Part shown: positions 24,238 through 57,948 of the stretch, piece after piece
Layout: the number at the start of each line of letters is the position of its first letter
How positions within the stretch are numbered: the first letter of the stretch is position 1
IMG/VR virus record: IMGVR_UViG_3300029288_000082
Location: 32,001-96,000 of that record
DNA: 64,000 nucleotides
Strand: one strand, 5' to 3'
From: a virus
Lineage: Duplodnaviria > Caudoviricetes
The notes under the pieces: model-generated
What the model was told of the DNA's origin: nothing
Database searches by the model: none
The model's input: only the letters and a program-made list of their open reading frames with translations
Translations under genes and position numbers: made by a program

Positions 24238-24311
24238 TCGGGGCGAGAGGATTCGAACCTCCGACATCCAGCTCCCAAAGCTGGCGCGCTACCAGGCTGC
24301 GCTACGCCCCG
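24238..24311 (-). tRNA. tRNA-Pro (UGG)
   Basis: CGGGGCGTAGCGCAGCCTGGTAGCGCGCCAGCTTTGGGAGCTGGATGTCGGAGGTTCGAATCCTCTCGCCCCGA; full cloverleaf, CCA not encoded. Confidence 0.95.
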
Positions 24312-26948: not shown

Positions 26949-27073
26949 TCTGTCCCTCCGGATTGTGGAGGCAGACGGTACCATACCCAGATCACGGCAG
27001 GCAAGTACTTTCCGTGGGAAAGTGACGCGGCCTACTCTTCCTGCTCGCTGTTGTGGGATCGGTTGCCGGACAT

Positions 27074-28372
27074 CAATGCCTCCGCGAGGGGACCGTCGTC
27101 TTTAGGCGACGGGAGAATCGCGGCCCCTCTCCGCTTGCTTTTCTGTTGACTTTCATCTGTTCATATGGGACTCTTGCATTGTGAGACGGACAATCATCAT
27201 CGCGCTTGAGCCAGCCAACGAGCAGCTTGCTGCACTCACGGAGACCTGCGACCTGTTCACCGAGGTCTTCAACGCCGTCTGCACAGGCGGGTGGCAACAC
27301 GCCGAAAAGAACGGGGTCCGCCTCCACCACGCCTTCTACCGGCCCCTCAAGGCCCAGCACCCGACCCTCGTGAGCGACCTGCATGTCCAGGCCCGCGTCA
27401 AAGCTACGGAGGCTATCCGAAGCGCGTTGGCCCTCAAACGCAAAGGCAAGAAAGTCTCCTGCCCGCACTCCACCTCTTGCCCCCCGCGCTACAACCTGCA
27501 CACCTTCAAGATCGACTGGGCTTCCCGCACCGTGCGCCTGTCCACTACGGCGGGGCGCCAGACCATCCGGTTCGCCGTCCCCGTTCACGCGGAGCGGTAC
27601 GCCGAGCATCCAGTGGACACTGCCGATCTCGTCTGCTGCGAAGGTCGTTGGGCCATGCACGTCTCCGTCACCGTGCCTGCGCCCGCCGTCGATCCCGTCA
27701 ATGACGTGGTGGGCGTGGACCTCGGGCTGGCCCAGCCAGCCGTCACGTCCAACAACCAGTTCCTGGGCAAAAAGGCATGGCGCTCTATCGAGAACCGGCT
27801 CTTCAAGCTGAAGCGCAGGCTGCAAGAACGAGGAACCAAGAGCGCCAAGCGCCATCTCAAAAAGATCCACAAGTCGCAAGCCAGGTTCCGCAGAGATTGC
27901 GACCACGTGCTCTCCAAGAAAGTTGTCCAGGCTTGCCCCGCTGGCGGCACGATCGTCTTGGAAAACCTGACCGACATCCGCAAGCGGGCACGGGCCAAGA
28001 GCAACACCGAAGCCAAGCGCCGCCTTCACGGGTGGTCCTTCGCGCAGATCAAGATCTTCATCGCGTACAAAGCCGAGGAACGGGGTTGTACGGTGGCCGG
28101 GGTCGATCCCCGGCATACCTCGCAACGATGCTCTCGCTGTGGACACACGGCGAAGAACAACCGCCGCTCCCGCGCCGTGTTCAAGTGTCGGAAGTGTGGA
28201 TTTTCCCTCCACGCCGACTTGAACGCAGCTCGCAACATCGCGGCCAAGTACCAGACCCACGTCGGCATGCCCGATATGGGTGGGCACCCTGTCAACGTGC
28301 CTATCGCGGGAGTGGGTGAACTCGTTCATTCAGCTACCTGCAAGCCGCCCGCTTTAGCTGGCGGTCGTTGAC
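27074..28372 (+). mobile_element. IS200/IS605-family TnpB-only (IS1341-like) element
   Basis: Left hairpin CCGTCGTC-TTTA-GGCGACGG and right hairpin CCGCCCGC-TTTA-GCTGGCGG followed by TCGTTGAC; no tnpA; left boundary uncertain by a few bp. Confidence 0.85.
27181..28371 (+). CDS. tnpB: RNA-guided endonuclease TnpB
   Basis: RuvC residues GVDLG, VLENL, HADLNAARNI; CSRC/CRKC Zn finger. Confidence 0.95.
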   Translation: MRRTIIIALEPANEQLAALTETCDLFTEVFNAVCTGGWQHAEKNGVRLHHAFYRPLKAQHPTLVSDLHVQARVKATEAIRSALALKRKGKKVSCPHSTSCPPRYNLHTFKIDWASRTVRLSTTAGRQTIRFAVPVHAERYAEHPVDTADLVCCEGRWAMHVSVTVPAPAVDPVNDVVGVDLGLAQPAVTSNNQFLGKKAWRSIENRLFKLKRRLQERGTKSAKRHLKKIHKSQARFRRDCDHVLSKKVVQACPAGGTIVLENLTDIRKRARAKSNTEAKRRLHGWSFAQIKIFIAYKAEERGCTVAGVDPRHTSQRCSRCGHTAKNNRRSRAVFKCRKCGFSLHADLNAARNIAAKYQTHVGMPDMGGHPVNVPIAGVGELVHSATCKPPALAGGR

Positions 28373-29071
28373 GTAGCAGCGGCGCTGGAGCAGGTGGATG
28401 GGCTCCCCAAGTGCCGCCGGCTCCCCCGCCCGGGCCTGCACGGCCTCCTCGCTGAGCCCAGCGTAGAGGTCCAGAGACAGCAGCCGCTGGTCGATGCCAG
28501 CGCGGACCTCCCGCTGGTCGGCGATGACGGCCTCCACCGGGATCGTCTCGGCATGCATCAGCCGCCCGAGCCGCTCCGAGGTGTCCCGGATTTGCTTGTA
28601 CAGGGCGGGGATCTCCTCCGCCTTGGCGCGCTCCAGGGCCTGCCGGTAGGCGGGGATCGGCTCGTCGCCGCGCAGGGCCAGCGCCGCGGCCTCCCCGCCG
28701 CCACCCTCCTCGGGGAGCGCCCGCCCGGGGGCCACGCCAAGCCGCAGCATGAGCGCCTCCAGGTCGCCAGTCAGCGCCCGCAACTGCTCCTTCTGCCGGG
28801 CGCCCGCGGCCCGGAGGACCGCTGGACCGTCGGGGCACAGCGTGCACGATGCCGCCAAGGCATCGTAACTAATGCGCGTCACATACTCACCGGCGCCATC
28901 CTCGATGACACCACGCAGCAGGACGTAGTTGCTGCCTAAGCGGACGACGCAACCGAGCCAGCGCTGCCCATCGTCCGGATCCATTACCCAGTACCACTCG
29001 CCCACCAGTGGCAGGTCTTCCGGCCGCTCGCGTGTTTTTGTAGGCGCGCACACCTTGTCCAAGTTGCTCAT
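28334..29071 (-). pseudogene. Phage protein interrupted at its 3' end by the IS element
   Basis: Frame runs into the IS right end after ...LLQRRCY; consensus promoter upstream. Confidence 0.6.
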
Positions 29072-29124
29072 CGCGCCTCCGCAGCAGGTTCGCCGCCAGC
29101 ATCCTCACTGGCCATTTCCTTTCA

Positions 29125-29154
29125 ATTATAACCAGTCGGTATGCGTTTGTCAAC
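29125..29154 (-). promoter_or_regulatory. Consensus sigma70 promoter TTGACA-17-TATAAT
   Basis: GTTGACAAACGCATACCGACTGGTTATAAT. Confidence 0.85.
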
Positions 29155-29157
29155 ATA

Positions 29158-30855
29158 TTAGGATCGCGTCGTGACGCGCAGAATTTCACCGCTGCGGAGG
29201 CCGACCACGGTGTCCCCGGCCGCGACCAGCCGCAACCCGGCGACCGCGGGATCGGCAATGCGACGGCCGACCTGCGCCCCGCGCTCGGGGAAGAGGGACA
29301 GCTCGCCGCCCTCGTCGATCAGGGCCACCACGCCCCGGGCAAGTCGGGCGACGTTCAGCGCGCCATGACCCACGTTACGATCGGCCCAGCGCAGCTGGGC
29401 GCCCGCACTGCCCACCGCGTACACGTAGCGGTCGACGCTGCCCCCGCGCTCGGCCAGGACCAGCAGGGCGCGCCCCCCGGCCCAGGCGTCCACCACGCGG
29501 GCGCCGTCCAGATCCGCCAGCCGCACCTGGTCGCTGCGGCCCGGGGCCGGGAACACGTTCGCGTACCACGCGCCCAGCACGCTCTGGAGGGCCACGCCGG
29601 GGTACAGCTGCGTCGCCAGGGGCGCCACGTTGGCCACCACGCGCGGGGCGGCAACGAGCTGCCCCCCCAGGCGCGCCAGCTGCACCTCGACCACGTGCTC
29701 GCCATCGTGGGCGTACAGGCGACCCTCGGCGGTGGTCAGCGCCGCAGCCTGCACGACGAGGGGCACCTCCGCCCCGCCATCCAGGGCGCGCATCCGGAGG
29801 CGCTGGCGGTCGATCCAGGCGTAGAGCGGCGTGCCGTCGGGGGCCCATGCCAGGGATCCCGCGCCATCCACGGGGACCTGCCGAGGAGGCCGGGTGCCGT
29901 CCCATAGCGTCACCGCGCACCCCGCTGGTCCCCGGACCAAAGCTGCCTCCGCGCCGCCGGGGATCGCCACGTACTCCAGCACATCCCCATCCACGACATG
30001 GAGCACGCGCAGGTCCACGTGCCCGGCGCTCGAAGCAGGCCGCAGCCCACGCATGGGCGCGCTGGCTTGGGCGCTGGCGGGCGGGGGATCGCGGCGGCCG
30101 GCCTCGAACACAGCGCGGTACCAGTCGCGATAGGCGCTCGGGATCACGTCTAGGGGCGGCACCAGCGGGGGCACCGACACGGCGGCGTTGAACACCGAGA
30201 GGTTGGCGCGCATGCGATCGGGCAGACCACGCACCGTGGGGTGGCGCCCCTTGTAGGGGTGGATGCCAACGAACAGCTGGAAGGTCACGATGCCCCAGGA
30301 AAACCAGTCGGATCCTGTGGTCCAGCAGCCCTGGGCGTGCCAATCCCGCACGCTCTCCATCAGGGCGGTGGCCGGGAAGCGAGGCGTCTGGTAGGAGTCC
30401 ACATCGATGAAGCACACCTCCTCGAAGGTGGCGGTGGCCAGGAAGTTCATCTCGTTGGCGTCCACCACCAGCACGCGGGCGGCGTGCACTGCCTCCATGC
30501 TGGCGCGCATGCGCTGCACGAGGCGCAGCACCGTGGAGCCATCCAGGCCGTGCCGCGCCTGGAATGCCCGGGTGAAGAGCTGGCAGAGCGGGAAGGCATC
30601 CGGAACACGGCGCATGCTGTAGCCGACCGGGCGCCCCCGGCCGTCCAGCAGCACGCGCTGCGGCCGGATCACGCTGTCGTCAGCGATCGCGCTCAACTCG
30701 TCGATCTTAGCCTCGGGGACCATGCGCTCGGGCTTCAGGTAGACCTTGAACGCCTCGTCCCCGTGAGCGTAGACCTGCCCCTCGCCGCCCGCGCCCAGGA
30801 AGTTGGCCTGGGTCAGCACGACCTCGCCGCCCCCCCGCATTCGGTACTTCGTCAT
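29158..30855 (-). CDS. Ser/Thr protein kinase (TerY-P type)
   Basis: GAGGEGQVY, FKVY, VVDANEMNFL, IDVDSYQ, SDWFS. Confidence 0.85.
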   Translation of the reverse strand: MTKYRMRGGGEVVLTQANFLGAGGEGQVYAHGDEAFKVYLKPERMVPEAKIDELSAIADDSVIRPQRVLLDGRGRPVGYSMRRVPDAFPLCQLFTRAFQARHGLDGSTVLRLVQRMRASMEAVHAARVLVVDANEMNFLATATFEEVCFIDVDSYQTPRFPATALMESVRDWHAQGCWTTGSDWFSWGIVTFQLFVGIHPYKGRHPTVRGLPDRMRANLSVFNAAVSVPPLVPPLDVIPSAYRDWYRAVFEAGRRDPPPASAQASAPMRGLRPASSAGHVDLRVLHVVDGDVLEYVAIPGGAEAALVRGPAGCAVTLWDGTRPPRQVPVDGAGSLAWAPDGTPLYAWIDRQRLRMRALDGGAEVPLVVQAAALTTAEGRLYAHDGEHVVEVQLARLGGQLVAAPRVVANVAPLATQLYPGVALQSVLGAWYANVFPAPGRSDQVRLADLDGARVVDAWAGGRALLVLAERGGSVDRYVYAVGSAGAQLRWADRNVGHGALNVARLARGVVALIDEGGELSLFPERGAQVGRRIADPAVAGLRLVAAGDTVVGLRSGEILRVTTRS

Positions 30856-31664
30856 GCGCTGCCCTCCGCGCGCTCCAGGACCACCGCGCCCATGCTGAGG
30901 TCGTCATCGTGGCGCCATCCCCGCTGAGCGGCCTTCCGCAGGAACGCCTGGAGGCGCCGCTGCACAAACACGCCCTGGAGCCCCTTGAACGCCATCAACT
31001 CGCCCACGATCACCTCAGAGGGGATGGGCTGGTGGTCCGCATCCAGGAAGGAGCGCACACCATCGCTGAACACAGCCACGACGGCGGCGTCCTCGATGGT
31101 CCGCTGGAAGGGCTGCACGCCCCGGCATCGCAGCTCCTCGCCATCCGGGCCACGCGCCACCCACTCCTCACGCTGCAGCACGGCCGCCATGCGCTGGTCG
31201 TCCACGAGGTAGTTGGCGTAGCGAGGGTATCCGTCGGGAGCCTCAACTTCCCAGATCCGCAGGGCGCCCCCCGGGTCCCGGGCGGCGATCACGCCGTCCC
31301 CGGTGCACGAGACGAAGGCCGAGGATCTTTGGCCCAGGGCGAAGACCAACGTGGCGTCCATCGCCAATGGGTCCAGATTCCAGCACGTTTTCTGGAACAG
31401 ACGGCGCCGGAGGTCGATCACCTCCATGGCGCCCCAACACCACCACGCGGGATCTGCCATGGAAGAAATGCGGCCTATTCCAACCTCGCAGCTCAGGGTG
31501 AGCAGCCGCGCGCCAACGTCCGTGTCGGGGCTGCCCGAGCAGCCGTCCGAGACGATGGCGTAGGGGCGGCCCTCTTGCGTCCGTCCGCACCGGGCGTAGT
31601 CCTGGCAGACCCGGTGGGCCGCCCCGATGACGTAGGCGCTGTCCGCGTTCGCCCGCATCTCCAT
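30852..31664 (-). CDS. PP2C-like protein phosphatase
   Basis: GAAHRVCQDY, VSDGCSG, GDG, FSDG, DDLS; TGATG and ATGA coupling. Confidence 0.85.
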   Translation of the reverse strand: MEMRANADSAYVIGAAHRVCQDYARCGRTQEGRPYAIVSDGCSGSPDTDVGARLLTLSCEVGIGRISSMADPAWWCWGAMEVIDLRRRLFQKTCWNLDPLAMDATLVFALGQRSSAFVSCTGDGVIAARDPGGALRIWEVEAPDGYPRYANYLVDDQRMAAVLQREEWVARGPDGEELRCRGVQPFQRTIEDAAVVAVFSDGVRSFLDADHQPIPSEVIVGELMAFKGLQGVFVQRRLQAFLRKAAQRGWRHDDDLSMGAVVLERAEGSA

Positions 31665-32416
31665 CAGAGGCTGAAGGACATCGGCTGCGAGGGGCCGCCG
31701 GTTCCGAGCGCCTGGGACTGGGCGCTGATGCTCTTGCTCACGAAGGCCGCCAACTTGGCCAGCGTCCGCGCGCTCGCGTCCTTGGTCTCGACGTACTGTC
31801 CGATCCCAGCCTCCTGCTGGAAGGCGACCAGGGCGCCGCTCACCTGCGGGTCGTTGCCCACCCCGACGCCCACCAGGATGGACACCTGGCTCTCCAGCGC
31901 CTCGGACTGGATGGCGCGCTCCAGCTGCGCCCGCACCTGCCCCGGGCCCCCCGCGGAGGCGTTGTCGCAGCCGTCGGAGATGATCACGGCCACCCCGTTC
32001 ACGGCGTAGTCGCTGCCGACCAGGGTACGCGCGTAGTCGGCCTGCGCGTGCACGGCGTGCTCCGCCGCGTCGAACAGCGCCGTCATGCCGCCGCACGACA
32101 GGCAGCCGCGGTAGTCGTCGAGGTTGCAGTTGGCGAGCAGCTTGAAGCCGTGCACCTCCCGCATGTGGTCGTTGAAGGTGATCATCCGCAGCATCAGGTT
32201 GTCGGCCCGGGGAGACAGCTTGCAGGCGTTGACCACCTCGCGGATGGCCTGCTCCATATCCGCAGCGTAGGGCCCCACGGACCCGCTCACGTCCACGGCC
32301 AGCGTGACCAGGGTGTACTCGGCCGCCCCCAGGGCGTCCAGGCGCGTGGCGCTGTACCCGAACGCGGTGGTCGGGAGCGCGCGCTCCTCCATGGACAGGT
32401 CGTTGATCTTCGGCAT
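31664..32416 (-). CDS. vWA-domain protein (TerY-like)
   Basis: MIDAS DVSGS, GGMTALFDA, IISDGCDN. Confidence 0.85.
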   Translation of the reverse strand: MPKINDLSMEERALPTTAFGYSATRLDALGAAEYTLVTLAVDVSGSVGPYAADMEQAIREVVNACKLSPRADNLMLRMITFNDHMREVHGFKLLANCNLDDYRGCLSCGGMTALFDAAEHAVHAQADYARTLVGSDYAVNGVAVIISDGCDNASAGGPGQVRAQLERAIQSEALESQVSILVGVGVGNDPQVSGALVAFQQEAGIGQYVETKDASARTLAKLAAFVSKSISAQSQALGTGGPSQPMSFSL

Positions 32417-32448
32417 CGGTTCCCTCGCCTTCCTGCTAGCGCACCGCG

Positions 32449-33252
32449 CTAGCGCAGCACGTCCACCGTGGTCGACGTCTGCATCCCCTTCGCCGTCATT
32501 TCGGCGACGAAGTCCTCTTGGAGCTTCTCGAACCCGGGCACCGGGCTGAGAGCGTCGGTGAGCAGCACGAACTTCTGGACGTAGTCCGCGCTGCTGAACC
32601 CGGCCGCCACGTCCCGGATCGTGTTGGCGACGCAGTGGCTGCCCGCCTCGCCCGCGATCAGGATCAGGTCCGCCTCCTCCAGCGCCTGGATGAGGCGCAG
32701 GTTGATCTGGGTCGACGGATCTGCCGGGTCCGGCACCTCGGCCTTCACCCCGGAGTAGTGCTCCGTGAACAGGTTGCTGCCCTTGCTCACGAAGTCGATC
32801 ACGCCCGGGCCCGCGGCCGCCCAAGCGTTGAGCGCCTCCAGCACGGCCGGCACCAGGGTGGCGCCCGGGCTACCGATCAGGCAGTGCGGGGGCCAGATGC
32901 ACAGCGGGTACCGGTGTCCGGCCTCCAGCGCGCGCACGTAGTCGAGCATGCGGCGCGTGAGGCTGGGGATGCACGGCGTCCAGGCGCCGCTCTCCACGTC
33001 CTGTGGCGTGATGATCGTGAACGGCGTCGGCGGCTGGCCGTCGGGCCCGCGCCACATGGCCGGGTGCGCCACGTCCAGCAGGTGATGCTGGTCGAGCGTC
33101 GCGTGGATGTCGTGCAGCCGCGCCCCCAACCGCTGGACCATGGCGGCCACGCGCTGCATGTCCTCCGCGGCGCCAGGCACGAACAGCGCCCCAGTAGGGT
33201 CGCAGAAGTCGTGCTGCGCGTCGATCAGGAACAGGTCCACCTTCTTCGTCAT
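32449..33252 (-). CDS. pncA: Nicotinamidase (isochorismatase family)
   Basis: IDAQHDFC, D.H, WPPHC, KGSN, GEAGSHCV. Confidence 0.8.
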   Translation of the reverse strand: MTKKVDLFLIDAQHDFCDPTGALFVPGAAEDMQRVAAMVQRLGARLHDIHATLDQHHLLDVAHPAMWRGPDGQPPTPFTIITPQDVESGAWTPCIPSLTRRMLDYVRALEAGHRYPLCIWPPHCLIGSPGATLVPAVLEALNAWAAAGPGVIDFVSKGSNLFTEHYSGVKAEVPDPADPSTQINLRLIQALEEADLILIAGEAGSHCVANTIRDVAAGFSSADYVQKFVLLTDALSPVPGFEKLQEDFVAEMTAKGMQTSTTVDVLR

Positions 33253-33264
33253 CGGATCCTCCTC

Positions 33265-34014
33265 TCAGGCCGGCTCCCGCCGGAAATGCGGCGGCACGCA
33301 ACGCTTGTGCGCGCTCACCGTGTGCAACTCGTCGATCTTCCGCGCCACCTCCACCTCGATGGCCTCCCCGCGCAGGTAGGCGTCGATGGCGCCGTACACG
33401 TTGGACGTTCCCAGGATGCCCCCCAACTCTTCTTGGTCGGTCTGGCCGATCCAGAGGCCAGCCGTCGGGGGACGATCTACCAGCGCCTCCGGCAGCCCAA
33501 GCAGCCGCCCCAGCTGGCGCACCTCGCCCTTGTCGAACGCGAGGAGCGGCTCCAGGTCCACCCCGTGATCGCCGTACTTCGTGGCGTACCCAATGTACGC
33601 CTCGGCCGCGTTGGTCGTGCCCACCACGAGGCCACCACGGTGGTTCGCCACCGCGTAGAGGGCCACCATGCGCAGGCGCGCCTGCATGTTGCCGCAGGTC
33701 AACGCGTTCAGCAGGGGATCACCTGTTGCGAAGCGCAGCTCCTTCTCCATCGCCTCGTATGCGCTGCGGATGTTCACCGGGAGCGCGTCCGCGGTGCACC
33801 CCAGGTGCTTCACCAGCGTGTTCGTCCACCGCACATCCGGGTCGGCCCCACACGGCATCCGGACCAGGACCGTGTGATCGCGGCCTACCGCGCGCACACA
33901 CAACGCAGCCACCACGGAGGAGTCCACCCCCCCGCTGATGCCCACCACGGCGCGGTGTAGGCCGCTTAGCAGATGCTCCCGCAGCCAGCCGCACAGGGCA
34001 TCCACGTCGCCCAT
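33265..34014 (-). CDS. nadE: NH3-dependent NAD+ synthetase
   Basis: GISGGVDSS, GNMQARLRM, GTTN..E...GYATKYGD, PTAGLW.GQTD.EELG, HKR. Confidence 0.93.
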   Translation of the reverse strand: MGDVDALCGWLREHLLSGLHRAVVGISGGVDSSVVAALCVRAVGRDHTVLVRMPCGADPDVRWTNTLVKHLGCTADALPVNIRSAYEAMEKELRFATGDPLLNALTCGNMQARLRMVALYAVANHRGGLVVGTTNAAEAYIGYATKYGDHGVDLEPLLAFDKGEVRQLGRLLGLPEALVDRPPTAGLWIGQTDQEELGGILGTSNVYGAIDAYLRGEAIEVEVARKIDELHTVSAHKRCVPPHFRREPA

Positions 34015-34016
34015 CG

Positions 34017-35189
34017 TCACGCACCCACGAGTCCCAGCGCCTGCTTGCATCGCTCCACCTCCTCTGGATCTCCCGAGTGCTTCGTGGGCACATCGGACAG
34101 CTTGACCGCGGGGCGCCACGGATTGGTCGGCCACGCCCGCGCCCGCGTCATCTTGATAACCATGTTGAGGGGCCGCACCCCCGGGACGTCGCAGGTCAGC
34201 GACGTGCCAAGGAGGAACCGCGCCCCGATGCGTCCCTCCATCGCTGACCGAATCGCCTGGACGTCGTCCAGGCCCAGGCCGTCGGAGAAGACCATGACCT
34301 TCGACCGTGGGTCGATGCCGAGCCGCTCGTAGTGGGCGATCACCTGCTGCGCGCACAGGAGCGGATCCCCAGAGTCCTGCCGCACGCCGTCGTAGATCCG
34401 CGCCCGGAGCCCGTTGAAGGCCCGCAAGAACACCGGCGTCGTGTAGGTGTCCAGGAGCCCGATCCCGAGCGCTCCCCGGTAGGTCTCCACCCAGCGGTCG
34501 AGCGCGATCGCCGTCGCCTCCTCGTAGCCGAGGATTGCGCCATGGTACATGGTCCACTCGTGCGCCACGGTGCCCACGCAGGGGAGCCCCATCTCCAGTG
34601 CCATGCCCACGTTGCTGGTGGGGATGTTCAGGGCCGCGAGGACCCGCTGGTGTATCTCCCGCGAGAAGCGGCGCCGCGTGCCGCCCTCGACCACCGGCAG
34701 TTGATCCCGGCGGATGAGCAAGCCCTTGGCCGCCGCCCGGTTCACTACGTCCGCGTCGCGGGCGGGCAGGCTGCCCCCGTGCGACAGCAGGTGGTAGCGC
34801 TCGGAGATCAGCGCCATCAGCGGAACCTCCCAGAGCACGGTGCGCAGCCATGGACCGCGCACGATCAGACGCAGACGGCGCTCCTCGTCCAAGCTGCACT
34901 CCACGATCTCGGACGGGTCGAAGCGGTAGCGCGCCAAGAAGGAGCGGTACCACGGCTGCACCGGCAGGACGCGCCCCAGGCCGTCAACCTCGGACTCGGT
35001 GAGCGCTGGAGCCGCGACCAGCTCCTCATCGATCCAGCTGCGCAGCTGGGCAAAGGCGGCAGGCCACGCCACAGGCGTCCGCACGATCAGCTCGTACTCC
35101 GCCTCCGCCTGGGGGTAGTGCTGCCCGATGGCTTGCTGCATCGAAAACTTGTAGAGGTCGGTATCGAGCAAGTGCATCACACGCTCCAT
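34017..35189 (-). CDS. pncB: Nicotinate phosphoribosyltransferase
   Basis: LLDTDLYKFSMQQ, GTRRRFS, GTVAHEW, GVRQDSGDP, FSDGL, KLSD. Confidence 0.93.
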   Translation of the reverse strand: MERVMHLLDTDLYKFSMQQAIGQHYPQAEAEYELIVRTPVAWPAAFAQLRSWIDEELVAAPALTESEVDGLGRVLPVQPWYRSFLARYRFDPSEIVECSLDEERRLRLIVRGPWLRTVLWEVPLMALISERYHLLSHGGSLPARDADVVNRAAAKGLLIRRDQLPVVEGGTRRRFSREIHQRVLAALNIPTSNVGMALEMGLPCVGTVAHEWTMYHGAILGYEEATAIALDRWVETYRGALGIGLLDTYTTPVFLRAFNGLRARIYDGVRQDSGDPLLCAQQVIAHYERLGIDPRSKVMVFSDGLGLDDVQAIRSAMEGRIGARFLLGTSLTCDVPGVRPLNMVIKMTRARAWPTNPWRPAVKLSDVPTKHSGDPEEVERCKQALGLVGA

Positions 35190-35218
35190 TCCCGTTCGTT
35201 CATGCCTCTACGCCTGAT

Positions 35219-35764
35219 TCACCTGATGGACGCCGTGGCCCCGGCCTCGGCCAGGAGCCTCACCGCCCGATCCGCCTCCTCCTTCGACACGCCCATCATC
35301 ACCGTCGAAGGGGCGCAGTCGGTGAGGTCTTTGGAGTCCTTCAGCCCCAGGCCGGTCAACTCCCGGATCTCCTTGATGACGTTGATCTTCCTTTCGCCCA
35401 CCATCTGCAAGATCACGTCGTACTTCTGCTCGGCAGATCCCGGGTGCAACCCCGCGTCCACCTCTTTCAGGAACGCAGGCACATCGACAACGCTGCCACG
35501 CAGGTCGGCGATGGCCGCGAGGAGGCGCAGGTGATCGATCGGATCCGGCATTCGCAACCTGTCGAGGATGTCGGCGACACGCTCCCTCTGCTCGTCATCC
35601 TCCATCGCCTCCTTGGCGAGGATGCTTCTCTGTTCCTCCAAATCGTAGATTTTCTCGCGGAACGCATCGTTCTCCGCCCGGAGTTGCGGGAGATGCTCCC
35701 GGAGGGTCGCGATCTCCGCTTCCATCTCGTCCGCCGTCTGCTGCTTCTTCTTCTTCTCGGCCAT
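35219..35764 (-). CDS. Coiled coil fused to ribosomal protein L7/L12 C-terminal domain
   Basis: YDVIL...KINVIKEIRELTGLGLKDSKDL...GVSKEEA...LAEAGA. Confidence 0.85.
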   Translation of the reverse strand: MAEKKKKQQTADEMEAEIATLREHLPQLRAENDAFREKIYDLEEQRSILAKEAMEDDEQRERVADILDRLRMPDPIDHLRLLAAIADLRGSVVDVPAFLKEVDAGLHPGSAEQKYDVILQMVGERKINVIKEIRELTGLGLKDSKDLTDCAPSTVMMGVSKEEADRAVRLLAEAGATASIR

Positions 35765-35789
35765 GGCATCCTCCTGTTTCGTTGTTTTG

Positions 35790-36260
35790 CTACCCACGCG
35801 CCCCGTCGTCCGCCAGCTCCCCGTCGCGGTCCTCGGACGCGCGCAGGCAGTCCTCGCAGATATCGCCTACTGCGCCGAACGGGATCGGCTCCCCGCAGTC
35901 GTAGCACTCCCGGTCGAGCTGCCCGGCCTCCCGCGCCGCATCGAAGGCGCCCTCGGTGGGCGGGAAGACCAGGTCCGGGTCGTCGATCCGCATCATCATC
36001 ACCTTCACCGGCACGTAGCGCTGGAGCGCGCGCCAGACCGCGCGCTGCAGGTCCGTCGCTCGCGTCTCCGGCGCGCACCCCCCGGTGAGGTAGCCGTCCC
36101 CGTGGCCGTGGACGCTGAAGCGGACCGGCTGGCCCGGTGGCGCCCACATGTCGCACTCCAGGGACAGGTTCCACTCCTCCTCCAGCGCCTCCTGCGCCAT
36201 CCGCTGCTCCCGCTGGGATGCCACCTCCACGTCCACCCACACACGGTATTCTCGGCTCAT
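35790..36260 (-). CDS. Hypothetical protein with C-terminal zinc finger
   Basis: CYDC...CEDC; ATGA coupling. Confidence 0.55.
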   Translation of the reverse strand: MSREYRVWVDVEVASQREQRMAQEALEEEWNLSLECDMWAPPGQPVRFSVHGHGDGYLTGGCAPETRATDLQRAVWRALQRYVPVKVMMMRIDDPDLVFPPTEGAFDAAREAGQLDRECYDCGEPIPFGAVGDICEDCLRASEDRDGELADDGARG

Positions 36261-36532
36261 GCGTCCTCCTTGCCGAACAACTTGGCGAGCAGCATGGACG
36301 CCGCCGCGTGCCAGCCCGCACGCTCCAGCGCGGCGCACACCTCGCCCTGCACGGCCGTCACGCCGCTGTCCCAGCCGCTCTCCCAGGCCGCCCGAACCAG
36401 CGCCCCCCGGGCATCCTCCGGCCAGCGCCCGCGAGTCTCTGGCACCAGGCGCGCCAGGCAGAGATCCCGCTCGGATCCGTGCTGCCGCTCAGCGATCTCG
36501 CTATCCTCGGTCCACCTGACGGTCTTGCTCAT
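36257..36532 (-). CDS. Hypothetical protein
   Basis: AGGAG RBS. Confidence 0.5.
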   Translation of the reverse strand: MSKTVRWTEDSEIAERQHGSERDLCLARLVPETRGRWPEDARGALVRAAWESGWDSGVTAVQGEVCAALERAGWHAAASMLLAKLFGKEDA

Positions 36533-36541
36533 GGTCGACTC

Positions 36542-36805
36542 CTAGAACGCCACGCACGCGCCCTGGTCGCATGGAGACCTGGGCAGCGACACCGCGCGCG
36601 CCAGATCCGCCACCGCGATCTCCAGGGCGTGGCGCACGTCCGCGTAGCACGCCTGCATCTCCACAGCCAGCTTGTCCCACGCCCACAGGCGCGCGTACAC
36701 TGCATCGACGTGCTCCTCCGCCACCGCGAAGGCGTTCTCCAGTCCGCGCTCCTCCGCCACGGCCCGGGCCGTGGCCACCACCCGCTCCCTCACCTGCCGG
36801 TTCAC
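36542..36805 (-). CDS. Hypothetical protein
   Basis: GTGA overlap with upstream gene. Confidence 0.45.
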   Translation of the reverse strand: MNRQVRERVVATARAVAEERGLENAFAVAEEHVDAVYARLWAWDKLAVEMQACYADVRHALEIAVADLARAVSLPRSPCDQGACVAF

Positions 36806-37026
36806 CGGACCACCGCCCGCAGGAGGTACTGGGCGGCCGCGATCACCGCGATCATTCTCTCCCGCACCTCCGGGGGCGCCCCCAGTACCTCCTCGGCCGT
36901 CACGTGGGCCGCGTACTCCTCCATGTCGGAAGACACGCGGCGGAGGCGCACACGCAGATCCTGCGCGCGCTCCAGAGCTGCCGCCTGCGAATGCTGCTGC
37001 ACATTGGCGCCATCGGTGTTCTTCAT
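36802..37026 (-). CDS. Hypothetical protein
   Basis: GGAGG RBS, first gene after the promoter. Confidence 0.55.
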   Translation of the reverse strand: MKNTDGANVQQHSQAAALERAQDLRVRLRRVSSDMEEYAAHVTAEEVLGAPPEVRERMIAVIAAAQYLLRAVVR

Positions 37027-37072
37027 CGCTTCCTCCCGGGCAGGGCATCTTCGACCCTGCCACCGTGAGGAT

Positions 37073-37135
37073 AGCTTAACCCGTTGTTATGCGTTTGTCA
37101 ACAGAGAAAAAAGAAAAAAGCGCACACGTGTTCGC
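37073..37135 (-). promoter_or_regulatory. Promoter TTGACA-17-TAAGCT with T-rich UP-like tract and palindrome (37120-37135)
   Basis: Heads the unit leading to the L7/L12, NAD and kinase genes. Confidence 0.75.
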
Positions 37136-37142
37136 GCGCGGA

Positions 37143-37451
37143 TCAGGCGAACTTCTTGGCCACGGCCTCGGCCATGCGGTTGACCTCGTCGGCGTACTTG
37201 CGGAGGGCGGGCACGAGGATGCTGTTGAACAGGTCCGGGGCCGCGCGGGTGGGCAAGCCAATGCGCGAGTAGCCGTCCAGCTTCCGCTTTGCATTCGCGA
37301 ACGCCGGCTGCAGGATCCGCTCCGCCTTGCTCTCCAGGGTATCGTACAGCTGCTTCGGATGCTCGATCATGCGACGCGCCTCGTCCTGCGGGTCCGGCGC
37401 ATCCGGATCGACGGACGTCGCTTCCATCAACTGCTCGATCAGATGTCGCAT
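37143..37451 (-). CDS. Leader-family protein (MRHLIEQLMEA)
   Basis: AGGAGG RBS; shared N-terminal motif. Confidence 0.65.
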   Translation of the reverse strand: MRHLIEQLMEATSVDPDAPDPQDEARRMIEHPKQLYDTLESKAERILQPAFANAKRKLDGYSRIGLPTRAAPDLFNSILVPALRKYADEVNRMAEAVAKKFA

Positions 37452-37460
37452 GTGGTCCTC

Positions 37461-37793
37461 CTACGAGCGTCCAAGCGCCATCTTCGCTGCGTCGGTCCCG
37501 GGGGCGCGCAGCCTCTTCCCCACCTGTCTCCAGAGCACCTTCCAGGCCAGGTCCAGGACGGCGTCGGACCGCGGGCTGTCTATGCCTCCAGGAACAAGAG
37601 AAAAGATCTCTCCCTCCATGTCGCCCTCGAACTCCTCCATCGCGTTCTCGATGGCCGCCACCAGCTTGTCCGCGAAGGGGCCCACCAGCCCCACCAGGTC
37701 CTTGGCCAACACGGTGCTGCTCGCCATCCCCTCGACCACGGAGGCGCTACCGTCGCGCATCACGAAGTCGATCTGCTCGATCAGCCGTCTCAC
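37461..37793 (-). CDS. Leader-family protein (MRRLIEQIDF)
   Basis: GTG start overlapping upstream TGA. Confidence 0.55.
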   Translation of the reverse strand: MRRLIEQIDFVMRDGSASVVEGMASSTVLAKDLVGLVGPFADKLVAAIENAMEEFEGDMEGEIFSLVPGGIDSPRSDAVLDLAWKVLWRQVGKRLRAPGTDAAKMALGRS

Positions 37794-38155
37794 GACGCCA
37801 CCATGCGCACGATCACGGGGTTGGCCGGGGCCACGACGCCCGCGGTGCCCGGGCTGGTCACGCAGGCGAACGACAGGTGCGCGAAGCCCCACCCCTCGGG
37901 GACCACCACGCTGCGGCGCTGGTTGGCCGGCACGCGCACGACCAGCTCGGGCGCCGTCGTGCCCACGGTGGGCGCCGCGCTGTCGTACACCTTCAGGCAC
38001 GCCTGATCAGCCGGGTTGCCCGTGTTGTCCACGTCGATCATGTAGAGGGTGCCCGCGCCGCCGGTCACGTCCGTGTCCGGCGTGACGCCCGCGCCCGTCT
38101 CCACGATCAGCTTGCTCCCCACCGGGGAGACCTGAGTCGAAACCGAAAGTGCCAT
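37790..38155 (-). CDS. Probable virion structural protein (beta-rich)
   Basis: V/T/G/A-rich; own promoter at 38177-38206. Confidence 0.55.
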   Translation of the reverse strand: MALSVSTQVSPVGSKLIVETGAGVTPDTDVTGGAGTLYMIDVDNTGNPADQACLKVYDSAAPTVGTTAPELVVRVPANQRRSVVVPEGWGFAHLSFACVTSPGTAGVVAPANPVIVRMVAS

Positions 38156-38201
38156 TTTTCAATCCTTCTCGCACCCACATTATCATATGGGTTTGCGTTT
38201 G

Positions 38202-38837
38202 TCAACCATCCTGGCGCCACATGACGGCCTCGACGTCCAGGGTGGCGGGGACCCAGACCTCCCAGCGGGCGCTCGCCCAGGTGGTGCCGCGGGCCTCCTC
38301 GACCCAGGGCGCCCCCAGGGCCATCCGCGCCACCTCCGCGCCCCCCAGCCGCCACGCGCCGCGGTGGCCCCAGCCCACCAGCCGCCACAGGAAGTCCTCG
38401 GGGGTCAGCAGCCGCGTGAACGCGCTCCGCACCCGCTCCGCCCGCTCCTCGCCAACGGCCCGCAGCGCGGCCCCCAGGGCGAACCGCGCGCCGTCGTCGC
38501 AGGGGCTCGGGGCCGCCTGCGCCATGAACATCTCCGTCACCGCGCCGTCCACGCTCACGCCCGCGCCCCCGGCCCGGCTGGGGTGCACGTCGAACCGCGC
38601 CTCGCAGCGCACGCTGCCGTCCGCCTGGGGCGCCTGGCTGATGCGCTGGAGCACGCACGCCTCGGCGTCCCCCAGGGTCACCCGCAGCGGCGGCGGCCCG
38701 TCCGCCCAGCGCTCCCCATTGGGCAGCACGCCCTCGCGCAGCAGCCGGAGCGCCGCGCGGTAGGCCGGCGTCTCCACGAGGTCGGGCGTGCCGACCACCC
38801 GGAGCGCTGCCTCGCCCAACCGCCGAAGTCGTCCCAC
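38202..38837 (-). CDS. Hypothetical protein (MGRLRRLGEAA)
   Basis: GGAGG RBS, GTG start. Confidence 0.5.
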   Translation of the reverse strand: MGRLRRLGEAALRVVGTPDLVETPAYRAALRLLREGVLPNGERWADGPPPLRVTLGDAEACVLQRISQAPQADGSVRCEARFDVHPSRAGGAGVSVDGAVTEMFMAQAAPSPCDDGARFALGAALRAVGEERAERVRSAFTRLLTPEDFLWRLVGWGHRGAWRLGGAEVARMALGAPWVEEARGTTWASARWEVWVPATLDVEAVMWRQDG

Positions 38838-54490: not shown

Positions 54491-54823
54491 CTAGATGATG
54501 AATACATCTGACCCGTCGGTCTGCAATGTCACCGACGCTCCGTCCACGTTGATGACCAAATCCAAGGCGGACCCCTCTATCAATTCCCCAGCCTCGGTCG
54601 CTACTGTAATGTTGTTCAACGACGCATTCATCCCGCTGTCCTTAACGGTGATCGTGTTCCCGCCCTTAGCAATCCACGCGGACTTCAGGTTGATCGTCAC
54701 CGGAGCCGTTGCCGTATGGCTAACCAACAGCGTGGCCATGCGGTCATCCGCCAACACGTCATAGGAAACCGCTGCAACATCGTAGTGCTCGTTGCGGATA
54801 TATCGCTGTCCACCTCGCTCCAT
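54491..54823 (-). CDS. Small fibre-module protein
   Basis: TITVKDSGMNASLNNITV...IEG...LVINVDGASVTL resembles the module in 42026..43183. Confidence 0.6.
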   Translation of the reverse strand: MERGGQRYIRNEHYDVAAVSYDVLADDRMATLLVSHTATAPVTINLKSAWIAKGGNTITVKDSGMNASLNNITVATEAGELIEGSALDLVINVDGASVTLQTDGSDVFII

Positions 54824-57800
54824 TAGAACGCCTCCACTTCTGGGTCAATCACGTTATATCCGTCCACAATCAGATTCGTCACCGTAGCACCAATGTCGAT
54901 GCCCAACCGGCAATGCGCCATCTTGATGTCCATCCCACCACCACCGGAATCGGTTATAGATGGGTTAGCACCAGGGGTAGTTTTCCGAATCGTGCAATCG
55001 TATAGCACGGCGGGTGCGGTGTCGTCGTACAAATCAATCACTGGAAAATCACCCAGCATGATAAGTGTACACCCAGATAGCTTATTGGAACTACCAAGGT
55101 GCCAGACATCTGTACCAGTACGAGTTGAACGGTAACATCTGATAAAGGTACACTTTTCAGCGCCACCAACCCCTCCAACCCGCGAACCCCAGCAATCCTC
55201 CCCGCCAACACAATCAGTGTACACCCCGTTGCATGAACCTGGGACAGCCGCACCGCCAGAACCGAAGGAACGTTCACCCGCAGTACACCGAGTAACGCTG
55301 CCTTTGACCGTACAACACGCAACAGAATCAGCGGTAACGATGCACGATCCAAACGACCTAACCCCGGCGTGACAATCAGTGGCGACCCCCTGGAACGCAG
55401 CCGTAACACCAGCAGGGGGGTTATTAGTCACACCAAAGCACCCGTCACCCCCTGTAACCCTATTCAGAATAGCGTCACATAGCGCGTTGTTATCAACCGA
55501 CGTACCGAAACATCCGTCCCCTCCAATGGTGTCCTCTATCGTCCCGCTGCAAGTTCCAGGGCTACTTGCACCATATCCAAAGGAATAATCCCCAGACTCG
55601 CAATGCTTGGCAGTTCCAGTAAACGACGCTGATGCGGGTTGCACAGTAGCAGCACCAAAGGAATAAATCCCAGCAACACAATGATCCAAATCGCCGCTAC
55701 AAAGCATATCATACATCGTAGAATCATCAGCACCGCACCCAAAGCAACGCTCCGTTCCGATGCAGTCAGACGCCTCTCCGCTGAAAGTGCTATGCCCATG
55801 TTCCGCATATCCGTAACTGTAGCCACGGGCCTCACAATCTACCATTGTCGCGGAGCACTCCGCGTTTCCACCAGTTCCAGGAGGAGCGCCGGTCAACACA
55901 GAAACACCAAACGCATAGTTGCCTGGAACAACACATCGAGTCAGCGTCCCAGCACACAACACATTTCCACCATTGCTCGCAACACCAAAACTACATGTGC
56001 CAGCAACACAGTCCATTGCTGTACCATCAAACGTTGCCCCCACATCTGGACCTGAAGACGCGCCAAAGCTCAATGAACCCGCTGTACAATTCTTGTAAAG
56101 CCCAGTAGCAGAACCACCATAAATGAACCCGTTCAAGTCCGTGTGGCAATCGTACCATGCAGATGAACACGACACCCCCATAAGCATCACCGCATAAGGC
56201 GGCGATACACCGGTCCCACGGAAGAACAACTCCTTGAACACACTACTAGGACTATCCTTCCGCATCAACAAACAAGCCTGTCCAGGAGTAGTAGCTATTT
56301 TCAAAATGCCGATCCGCTCCATGCGACCGCTATCAGCATCCCACCCCAGATCTATCCCATCAGGCACCAAGATCCTGGTCGAAGGTGTGCGAGCATCCCC
56401 GGACGCCTCCAGCACAGGAGAACTCCCCGCGCCGACAACCGACACATACTCCTGATCCAGATCCTTGCTGGCACCCATAACATAGGTTCCGCTCTGCAAC
56501 TCAATGGTGAGCATGTTCGACGCGCTAAGTGCGACGCCTAACGAAACCCAGTTTGGAGCACAATCATACGTGTGCTCGAACAGCCTCCACCCTGCTGTCG
56601 GATCGGAGGACAAATCCAACGACGCAGGAATCCTGACGCAATCGTGCGCTGAACGGTATTCGCTTTCCCCATTCCACCAGCCGCGACCGTAGGCTCCAAG
56701 ATTATCCAACGTGAAACCGACGAAAGACAGCCCACCGAGATCGGGACACGCCATCGCCATGGTTACGAGTGACGACTCATCGAAGACGATCGCGTTGCAA
56801 GTCGTGTGGTACTGTGCATTGACACTAGGATCCGGACCCATCCCAAAGTAACTGTCGATCAGAGCCTTCGACCGATGGATCACCGCGCCCCTGACGTTTC
56901 CGTACCCGCCATCAACCCTACCGTAAGCGTACGGATTCCCAAAGATGTCCCTGTCAAAGTTTGCGAAGTACTCGCAGTCCTCCATCCAGTTGATCCTGCA
57001 CACCCCACACATGAACACTGACGACCTCGCGGCATAGATATCGATACGGTTATCCTGAAACCACCCACCAGGAACGTCACTGGTGTCAACGTGCGCACAG
57101 ATCCACGAATGGTTCCCACCGTCATCTTGCGCTGGGCTGTCCTTCAAATAGAGTTTCATGACCCTGGTGGCGTCCAACTCATCGGCAGTTCCGCTGGCGT
57201 CGTTGAAAACATAGAAGCTCTCACGGACAGCGCCATTGATCTCCACGACATGAAAATCCGGCATCGGGAAACCGCAGCCTGCGTTCGCGTTCTGAACCTG
57301 TATACTGCCATCAACCAGCCTGAACCCTTGCGGGTAATTGTCATCATGAATCTTCAACCCCGGTTCCCATCCCACAGATGGCTTGCGCACAAATCTGACC
57401 GTTGGCGCATCCTTGTCCGTAGCCAGCCCGTAGGTATTCCACAGCTGAGGATCAATCGTCCACATGATGGCATTTGGCGTGGACAGCCGACAGTTGTCCC
57501 CCGTTATCGTGATGTGCATCCTCTGCGGAAGATACGTTGCCATCCCCTCGGCGTACACTCCGGGAGCAAGGTGGAACGTGAGGGGCTGCAAGAACACTGC
57601 AACATCCAACGGCCCAGGAATCGGTTGCGCATCACACGCCGCTTTGAACGTCTGGTACGGCTTCCCGATGGACCCGTCCCCCGTCACATCATTCCCGTCC
57701 ACAGCGTCCACGTAGATCTCGCCGTTGCCGGTGATGGCCACGCTGCCTGTGATCGGCACCCACGCACCGTTCATCCGCCCCACGAACTCGTTCGTCGTGG

Positions 57801-57948
57801 TGCTGTAGTACCATGTCCCATCGACGGGCACGCCGAGGCCGTCCTGCGTCGAGTCCCAGCGGTTGGCCAACACGAACGCCGTCGCCGCAGCGTCATCCAC
57901 GAGGTTGCCGAGGAAGTTCTTGTTGCCGTAGGGATCTTGAAACGCCAT
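54823..57948 (-). CDS. Large fibre/tailspike-like protein with Cys/Gly beta-helix repeats
   Basis: IYVDAVDGNDVTGDGS..KPY.T module; repeated C.AG..SFG units. Confidence 0.7.
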   Translation of the reverse strand: MAFQDPYGNKNFLGNLVDDAAATAFVLANRWDSTQDGLGVPVDGTWYYSTTTNEFVGRMNGAWVPITGSVAITGNGEIYVDAVDGNDVTGDGSIGKPYQTFKAACDAQPIPGPLDVAVFLQPLTFHLAPGVYAEGMATYLPQRMHITITGDNCRLSTPNAIMWTIDPQLWNTYGLATDKDAPTVRFVRKPSVGWEPGLKIHDDNYPQGFRLVDGSIQVQNANAGCGFPMPDFHVVEINGAVRESFYVFNDASGTADELDATRVMKLYLKDSPAQDDGGNHSWICAHVDTSDVPGGWFQDNRIDIYAARSSVFMCGVCRINWMEDCEYFANFDRDIFGNPYAYGRVDGGYGNVRGAVIHRSKALIDSYFGMGPDPSVNAQYHTTCNAIVFDESSLVTMAMACPDLGGLSFVGFTLDNLGAYGRGWWNGESEYRSAHDCVRIPASLDLSSDPTAGWRLFEHTYDCAPNWVSLGVALSASNMLTIELQSGTYVMGASKDLDQEYVSVVGAGSSPVLEASGDARTPSTRILVPDGIDLGWDADSGRMERIGILKIATTPGQACLLMRKDSPSSVFKELFFRGTGVSPPYAVMLMGVSCSSAWYDCHTDLNGFIYGGSATGLYKNCTAGSLSFGASSGPDVGATFDGTAMDCVAGTCSFGVASNGGNVLCAGTLTRCVVPGNYAFGVSVLTGAPPGTGGNAECSATMVDCEARGYSYGYAEHGHSTFSGEASDCIGTERCFGCGADDSTMYDMLCSGDLDHCVAGIYSFGAATVQPASASFTGTAKHCESGDYSFGYGASSPGTCSGTIEDTIGGDGCFGTSVDNNALCDAILNRVTGGDGCFGVTNNPPAGVTAAFQGVATDCHAGVRSFGSCIVTADSVACCTVKGSVTRCTAGERSFGSGGAAVPGSCNGVYTDCVGGEDCWGSRVGGVGGAEKCTFIRCYRSTRTGTDVWHLGSSNKLSGCTLIMLGDFPVIDLYDDTAPAVLYDCTIRKTTPGANPSITDSGGGGMDIKMAHCRLGIDIGATVTNLIVDGYNVIDPEVEAF

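Follow-up and report, generated by a model that had tools for sequence, protein, structure and literature searches.

Depletion of nicotinamide adenine dinucleotide (NAD+) is a central weapon of bacterial immunity. The locus studied here raises the question of what a phage gains by carrying genes for rebuilding NAD+ directly beside genes for a von Willebrand factor A (vWA) protein, a PP2C phosphatase, and a Ser/Thr kinase. It lies at 29158-35189 of a 64,000-nt stretch of DNA, hereafter the window, which corresponds to positions 32001-96000 of contig C2 (161,119 bp, 66.4% GC; IMG/VR record IMGVR_UViG_3300029288_000082). We consider it reasonably likely that the locus holds a phage Preiss-Handler-type NAD+ salvage set, and that its nicotinamidase is part of a conserved PncA-vWA-PP2C-kinase module which probably regulates the nicotinamidase step. 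Positions below are those of the window unless another contig or locus is named.

Six adjacent genes for predicted NAD+ salvage enzymes and a vWA-PP2C-kinase set

The six genes all lie on the minus strand. Inspection of start codons and ribosome-binding sites (RBSs) gave spacings of 2, 12, and 32 bp, then a TGATG overlap, and then an ATGA overlap. In order of transcription they are pncB (34017-35189, 390 aa), nadE (33265-34014, 249 aa; an alternative start at 34050 would give 261 aa and has a better RBS), a pncA-like gene (32449-33252, 267 aa), the vWA gene (31664-32416, 250 aa), the PP2C gene (30852-31664, 270 aa), whose start overlaps the vWA stop, and the kinase-propeller gene (29158-30855, 565 aa), whose start overlaps the PP2C stop. 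A preliminary description of this DNA had reported six contiguous, co-oriented genes with 2-32 bp gaps or stop/start overlaps and with intact catalytic motifs throughout. Our coordinates and spacings agree with it, and profiles, conserved residues, and structural models bear out the motifs in all six. The names it gave to the three salvage genes are also credible, given the profile cutoffs passed by the first two and the residues and fold of the third.

PncB carries the Pfam domains NAPRTase_N and NAPRTase and passes the TIGR01514 equivalog model (309 bits against a cutoff of 269.55), which makes it a credible nicotinate phosphoribosyltransferase, predicted to form nicotinate mononucleotide (NaMN) from nicotinate and phosphoribosyl pyrophosphate (PRPP), with ATP. 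Its gene is the only one of the NAPRTase family in the whole assembly. NadE matches NAD_synthase (4.2e-55), TIGR00552 (199.6 against a cutoff of 63.65), and phrog_11189, NAD synthetase (1e-45), and is a credible NAD+ synthetase, predicted to convert nicotinate adenine dinucleotide (NaAD) to NAD+. It consists of a single domain without the glutaminase (CN-hydrolase) domain and is thus of the ammonia type.

The PncA-like protein is more divergent. It matches M. tuberculosis PncA (3pl1) and yeast Pnc1 (2h0r) in phmmer searches, and its putative catalytic triad (D11, K157, C207) and metal site (D54, H56, and H123, the last within a WPPHC motif) are invariant in 41 phage and bacterial homologues of 44-68% identity. 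The D11 and C207 motifs align with the corresponding motifs of M. tuberculosis PncA, and the metal-site motifs with those of both the M. tuberculosis and yeast enzymes. In the AlphaFold2 (AF2) model, which has a pLDDT score (predicted local distance difference test) of 93.5, the 11 best Foldseek matches in the PDB are all nicotinamidases, with target-normalised template-modelling (TM) scores of 0.76-0.82 for ranks 1-10 and 0.51 for rank 11, a longer Drosophila enzyme; these come ahead of other isochorismatase-family enzymes. On sequence and model together, the protein is credible as a divergent nicotinamidase, predicted to convert nicotinamide to nicotinate and ammonia. It also has a family-specific insertion at about residues 57-118 and a conserved acidic loop at about 158-184. 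Some homologues are longer. Those of 511-533 aa (including L358:8001-9602 and proteins P0152-P0161) have an unannotated N-terminal domain of about 250 aa, and others carry GIY-YIG and NUMOD3 homing-endonuclease domains. At L358, genes of vWA size, PP2C_2, and kinase size still lie downstream.

The vWA protein matches Pfam VWA weakly (E 0.0017) and phrog_7371 at 9e-11, and the residues of its predicted metal-ion-dependent adhesion site (MIDAS), D42, S46, T112, and D148, are at least 95% conserved among 140 sequences. PP2C matches Pfam PP2C_2 (5.1e-9), and its metal-binding positions D22, D40-G41, D123-G124, D201-G202, and D254/D255 are at least 95% conserved among 134 sequences; it is a predicted Ser/Thr phosphatase.

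The kinase protein has no Pfam match and no PDB sequence match. Its AF2 model (pLDDT 92) combines a kinase fold (residues 1-255) with a seven-bladed beta-propeller (residues 280-565), and Foldseek matches it to the LRRK2 kinase-WD40 region and to WD40 propellers. The kinase residues G23 (in the glycine loop), K37, D132, N137, and D151 are invariant across the family, which comprises 2311 cluster representatives at E<=0.001 and 879 at E<=1e-30. None of the PncA-like, PP2C, and kinase proteins has a family in PHROGs, and a PADLOC search at E 0.01 gave no family for the vWA, PP2C, or kinase proteins.

The nicotinamidase and the triad form a recurrent four-gene unit

A scan of viral contigs seeded with the PncA-like protein returned 67 loci at 38-68% identity. 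A vWA gene was present at 64 of them, a PP2C gene at 61, and the kinase gene at 61, whereas pncB was found within 8 kb at 21 and nadE at 12. The opposite scan, seeded with an alignment of the kinase, returned 80 viral loci, with PncA-like at 69, vWA at 71, and PP2C at 78; several of the exceptions were loci cut by contig ends. Together the two scans define 81 non-redundant viral cassettes. The conserved unit is PncA-like, vWA, PP2C, and kinase, and PncB, NadE, NadD, and NrtR are optional neighbours. The preliminary description had made recurrence of the salvage-triad linkage in other phages a test of its proposal. The linkage does recur widely, but of the salvage genes only that for the nicotinamidase is a conserved partner of the triad; PncB or NadE is nearby in about a third of cassettes.

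The cassette is built from two tight pairs, PncA-vWA and PP2C-kinase, which may be separated or swapped, and the vWA gene directly follows the nicotinamidase gene in >90% of cassettes. Either pncB or nadE lies within 3 kb of 30 of the 81 cassettes, and at 13 it is located between the cassette genes themselves. The relative order pncB, nadE, pncA, vWA, PP2C, kinase is shared by at least six further viral contigs. NadD-like genes, NrtR-like genes (Nudix with a winged helix-turn-helix), an NMNAT-Nudix fusion, and NAD-dependent DNA ligase also recur as neighbours. Among five near-complete relatives without a nearby pncB, a NAPRTase-family gene lies elsewhere in four and a CTP_transf_like gene is present in all five.

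In a tree of PncA-like proteins, the window falls in a supported five-member viral clade. The pncB-nadE pair sits between PP2C and the kinase in its relatives and upstream in the window, so the pair has moved within this clade and has nevertheless stayed with the cassette. A pncB-seeded scan returned 39 viral loci, with nadE at 24, PncA-like at 14, and the full triad at only 7, and phages with PncB and NadE but without the triad are common.

The cassette is not phage-specific, as it also occupies ordinary chromosomal contexts in three bacterial phyla. A compact four-gene form occurs in metagenome-assembled genomes (MAGs) of Armatimonadota, Acidobacteriota, and Myxococcota, including chromosome-level assemblies, among species-representative genomes. 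On one Capsulimonadaceae chromosome of 4.4 Mb, pncB comes directly after the cassette, and the genes on either side are LeuA-like, serpin, histidine kinase, sugar kinase, MFS, and CysN-like. Among the proteins that flank the cassette on 14 large bacterial contigs, 113 in all, NAPRTase was the most frequent family (5/113), followed by TPR, BTAD, WGR, and PARP, and no phage structural family was among their 25 most frequent Pfam families. In the PncA-like tree, bacterial sequences group by taxon in clades with short branches, amid far more diverse viral ones. Because the root was placed at the midpoint only, we draw no conclusion about a donor. At nine bacterial loci (L157, L161, L165, L194, L214, L215, L219, L220, and L233), tblastn places PncA-like, vWA, and kinase too close together for a PP2C gene; this spacing variant is found mainly in Blastocatellia and Myxococcota MAGs.

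A putative switch on nicotinamide recycling

We propose that the PncA-like enzyme would convert nicotinamide to nicotinate and that PncB would make NaMN from it. As the contig is without an adenylyltransferase, NaAD would presumably come from a host NadD, and NadE would then amidate NaAD to NAD+. The four-gene module is inherited as its two pairs. The MIDAS-bearing vWA protein may bind the nicotinamidase or a partner of it, while the kinase, whose propeller would serve for sensing or docking, and PP2C would set a reversible phosphorylation that turns nicotinamide recycling up or down. In a phage, the likeliest use would be to keep NAD+ available during infection, either for the phage's own needs or by rebuilding it from nicotinamide freed by host NADase defences. 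The sequences establish the gene identities, the intact active sites, the predicted folds, and the linkage conserved in phages and bacteria; the enzyme activities, the use of a host NadD, the direction of phosphorylation, and any role against defence systems are our inference.

The adenylyltransferase step deserves separate attention. The preliminary description had noted its absence from the window and had suggested looking for NadD, NadM, NadR, and Prs in the rest of the genome. The absence extends to the whole of C2, which has no adenylyltransferase of the NadD, NadM, or NadR type and no PRPP synthetase; matches to PF01467 (CTP_transf_like) are confined to the host-like contigs C52 and C13. 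Nudix/NrtR and NAD-dependent ligase genes were likewise looked for and not found on the phage contig. Prs is encoded on C89 and LigA on C47, both other contigs of the assembly. A NUDIX domain had no match at E<=0.001 anywhere in the assembly, which is rated 95% complete, although this may reflect the first-look filter of the search; its absence from a whole bin would be unusual for a bacterium. Relatives in the window's own clade show both states: an adenylyltransferase gene is missing from one complete genome (176 kb, with terminal repeats), and another, of 198 kb and also complete, has a NadD-like gene beside the cassette. Dependence of the phage on a host NadD is plausible, though not proven, since C2 is probably 80-90% of the genome.

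Several observations weigh against this reading. The PncA-like protein has no Pfam match at E 0.01 (PF00857) and scores only 27.3 bits against NF008623, for which the cutoff is 174. Two candidate signs of physical contact with the triad were considered and rejected. The first was the acidic loop (158-184) as an interface, but homologues without the triad keep the loop, so it is no evidence of one; triad-less proteins also retain the family insertion. The second was a PncA-like/vWA fusion, but the homologues of 511-533 aa carry other domains and not vWA, and no fusion to any triad component was found among the long homologues. At the level of gene content, 50 of the 81 cassettes are without pncB or nadE within 3 kb. 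Moreover, the same PncA-like subfamily occurs with pncB and nadE in a 292 kb phage genome that is 91% complete and lacks the kinase altogether, which argues that the enzyme works without the triad and that the triad may serve another purpose. As for defence, SIR2_2, the only NADase-defence family tried, has no match in the assembly, and the host assignment comes from binning alone, so a counter-defence role would be without local support.

Alternative explanations

A serious rival, although we regard it as fairly unlikely, is that the four genes form a conflict system, one that defends bacteria and that phages use for counter-defence or superinfection exclusion. In that case the nicotinamidase-like protein would sense or destroy a nicotinamide-type signal, such as a burst from Sir2, TIR, or PARP-type activity, the kinase would be the output, acting on host or phage proteins, and the NAD genes would be neighbours by theme and not regulated. 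The vWA-PP2C-kinase triads known to act against phages, either alone or as restriction add-ons (PMC11090510), speak for such a role, as do the PARP and WGR genes beside some bacterial copies and a kinase propeller that suits protein binding. The many cassettes without a close pncB or nadE fit it as well. Their force is reduced by the 13 loci at which NAD salvage genes are interleaved in the cassette, and by a PncA-like protein that keeps the full nicotinamidase active site. Furthermore, no PADLOC model matches any of the four proteins, and the bacterial copies look like resident genes: they are taxon-coherent with short branches, one of them (L159) lies among housekeeping-type genes, and their pooled flanks, assessed by Pfam families only, have no phage structural family in the top 25.

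It is also conceivable, but quite improbable, that the PncA-like enzyme acts on another amide, such as nicotinamide mononucleotide (NMN), nicotinamide riboside, or another pyridine or pyrazine carboxamide, and that the module feeds or drains another pyridine branch. Its divergence beyond the reach of the curated nicotinamidase models is what such a substrate change might look like, as are the insertion of about 60 residues and the acidic loop, both missing from canonical PncA, and the extra N-terminal domain of some homologues. Nevertheless, the catalytic triad and the Asp-His-His metal site of nicotinamidases are invariant, the top structural matches are to nicotinamidases before other family members, and triad-less phages have plain PncA-PncB-NadE arrangements, all of which favour nicotinamide as the substrate. 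That the two halves are unrelated cargo, chance neighbours in a variable region of the phage, is very improbable: no other contig was found to have the six genes uninterrupted and in exactly this order, and the L7/L12-domain gene of the unit is unique to this phage, but the reading is contradicted by adjacency that persists across 38-68% protein identity, 81 viral cassettes, and three bacterial phyla in both search directions.

Phage contig, transcription signals, and neighbouring genes

The preliminary description took the DNA to be that of a phage, and the rest of the contig agrees. On its genes for a tail sheath, a baseplate wedge protein, a major head protein, a prohead protease, and a portal, C2 is a large myovirus contig, binned with a bacterial MAG. 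Nearly all of its genes lie on the minus strand. The assembly that contains it amounts to 3.57 Mb in 205 contigs with an overall GC of 60.6%. RpoB of the bin is at most 67% identical to Myxococcota sequences, and the host assignment for the phage rests on binning alone. A search for a phage-host link through short exact matches or spacers returned a single match, a 77 bp tRNA-like stretch on C5. The phage contig has a tRNA-Pro (TGG) gene at 24238-24311 on the minus strand; the 77 bp stretch is 86% identical to C5, and the C5 stretch may be that contig's own tRNA-Pro gene. Megablast against deposited phages found no close DNA relative, and tblastn with the kinase against deposited sequences gave only three matches, all in unannotated uncultured huge phages.

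Transcription of the six genes probably starts at a promoter-like site at 37101-37073 on the minus strand (TTGACA, 17 nt spacer, TAAGCT), directly preceded on that strand by a terminator hairpin with a T-run at 37140-37121. The preliminary description had placed a promoter here. Its -35 element is perfect, but the -10 element is weak, with 3/6 matches, for which reason our promoter scan left it uncalled. Four small open reading frames (ORFs), including an L7/L12-domain gene, lie between the site and pncB. The sole promoter that the scan called in 27000-38500 is a sigma-70 consensus promoter at 29153-29125 on the minus strand (TTGACA, 17 nt spacer, TATAAT; 12/12 matches), in a phage of 66% GC. 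It lies directly 3' of the kinase stop and ahead of a 245 aa gene at 29071-28334; it opens the next unit and marks the 3' boundary of the cassette. An Rfam search of 28000-38500 found no riboswitch or other RNA family.

The L7/L12-domain gene (35219-35764, minus strand, 181 aa) ends 29 bp upstream of pncB. Its product joins a coiled-coil-like N-terminal half to a ribosomal L7/L12 C-terminal domain (Pfam Ribosomal_L12, 3.7e-22) and scores 70.7 bits against TIGR00855, under the cutoff. The gene had no tblastn match in any related cassette locus. The host bin's own L12 is encoded on C79 and is 48% identical to the phage protein over the domain.

Two further ORFs are worth recording. The portal ORF (922 aa; L006:10005-12773, which is 154005-156773 of C2 and lies outside the window) is split between its two portal-matching parts by an HNH endonuclease segment at about residues 423-507. 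A 1041 aa ORF at 54823-57948 on the minus strand, which may encode a tail fibre or receptor-binding protein acquired horizontally, adjoins the baseplate wedge gene (58597-60816) and lies in a stretch of 54-56% GC, far below the 66% of the contig.

Comparison with known systems

The salvage enzymes of the window belong to the Preiss-Handler route, or pyridine nucleotide cycle (PncA, PncB, NadD, NadE), which leads from nicotinamide through nicotinate, NaMN, and NaAD to NAD+. Clusters of pncB-nadD-nadE have already been reported from metagenomes in so-called NAD-jumbo phages, where phage pncA is also mentioned, and a vWA-PP2C-kinase set with a nicotinamidase is absent from that description (PMC11662467). 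The deamidating phage route is thus not a new idea, and so far it has been reported from metagenomic annotation only. The window differs from those clusters in that its contig is without NadD and its nicotinamidase belongs to a divergent subfamily tied to the triad. A published survey of NAD+ systems in viruses leaves PncA, PncB, and NadE unmentioned.

Three phage systems have been shown experimentally to counter Sir2, TIR, and other NADase defences, namely NARP1 (Adps and Namat), NARP2 (Nampt and Nmnat), and NARP3 (PnuC and NadR) (PMC13464706). Like them, the locus would rebuild NAD+ with phage-encoded enzymes. All three keep the amide, whereas the window route is deamidating and needs NadE. 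The preliminary description had called this a chemically different rescue route, which is right with respect to NARP1, NARP2, and NARP3 but overlooks the Preiss-Handler clusters already reported in phages. No NAMPT gene or NMNAT-type (NadR/NadM) gene is present on the contig, and no search was made for PnuC. As regards NARP2 in particular, the sole NAPRTase-family gene is a PncB equivalog, and the contig has no CTP_transf_like gene. A bolder claim would make the module a signalling device on NAD+ recycling, with sensing by the propeller, a Ser/Thr phosphorylation switch, and use by huge phages to time or boost the rebuilding of NAD+ from nicotinamide released by host NADase immunity; it would be a fourth NAD+ reconstitution strategy, deamidating and regulated. 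We hold this to be doubtful, and offer it as a tentative extension of the regulated nicotinamidase step proposed above.

The triad itself resembles TerY-P, which reportedly was described as an anti-phage system by Gao and colleagues in 2020. In both, genes for a vWA protein, a PP2C phosphatase, and a Ser/Thr kinase lie side by side, and the MIDAS, PP2C, and kinase motifs are intact. According to the summary of Anantharaman et al. 2012 in PMC11090510, TerY-P kinases of the Ter/CoCoNuT type end in a zinc ribbon and those of the defence type in an OB fold, whereas the C-terminal 285 residues of the window kinase are modelled as a beta-propeller. With this propeller and no PADLOC match, we rejected canonical TerY-P membership, which the preliminary description had assigned. 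The window triad also differs in being tied to a nicotinamidase gene and in occurring in NAD salvage contexts.

The yegL-pphC-(yegJ)-yegI locus of E. coli likewise brings vWA, PP2C, and kinase genes together, and the kinase domain of the window protein is homologous to YegI (BLASTP 26% identity, E 8e-13, residues 20-253), a biochemically demonstrated Ser/Thr kinase (bioRxiv 10.1101/819920). Unlike the window kinase, YegI reportedly spans the membrane twice and lacks a propeller. BLASTP gave no significant similarity of PphC and YegL to the window PP2C and vWA proteins, and the yeg locus, unlike the window, has no nicotinamidase gene.

With canonical nicotinamidases (3pl1, 2h0r/3v8e, and the A. 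baumannii enzyme 2wta), the PncA-like protein shares the fold, the Asp-Lys-Cys triad, and the Asp-His-His metal site. It differs from them in its identity of about 20%, its extra insertion of about 60 residues, its acidic loop, and its scores below the cutoffs of curated hidden Markov models.

A literature search found no paper joining a nicotinamidase to a vWA-PP2C-kinase triad, and the PncA-vWA-PP2C-kinase module is apparently undescribed. Relative to the literature searched, two points are new. The nicotinamidase that would open the route belongs to a fixed four-gene unit with vWA, PP2C, and kinase-propeller proteins, and this unit is widespread, with 81 viral cassettes and copies on the chromosomes of three bacterial phyla. 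Should nicotinamide recycling prove to be under the control of this unit, NAD+ salvage would have its first known Ser/Thr phospho-switch, and a TerY-P-like triad would gain a metabolic role.

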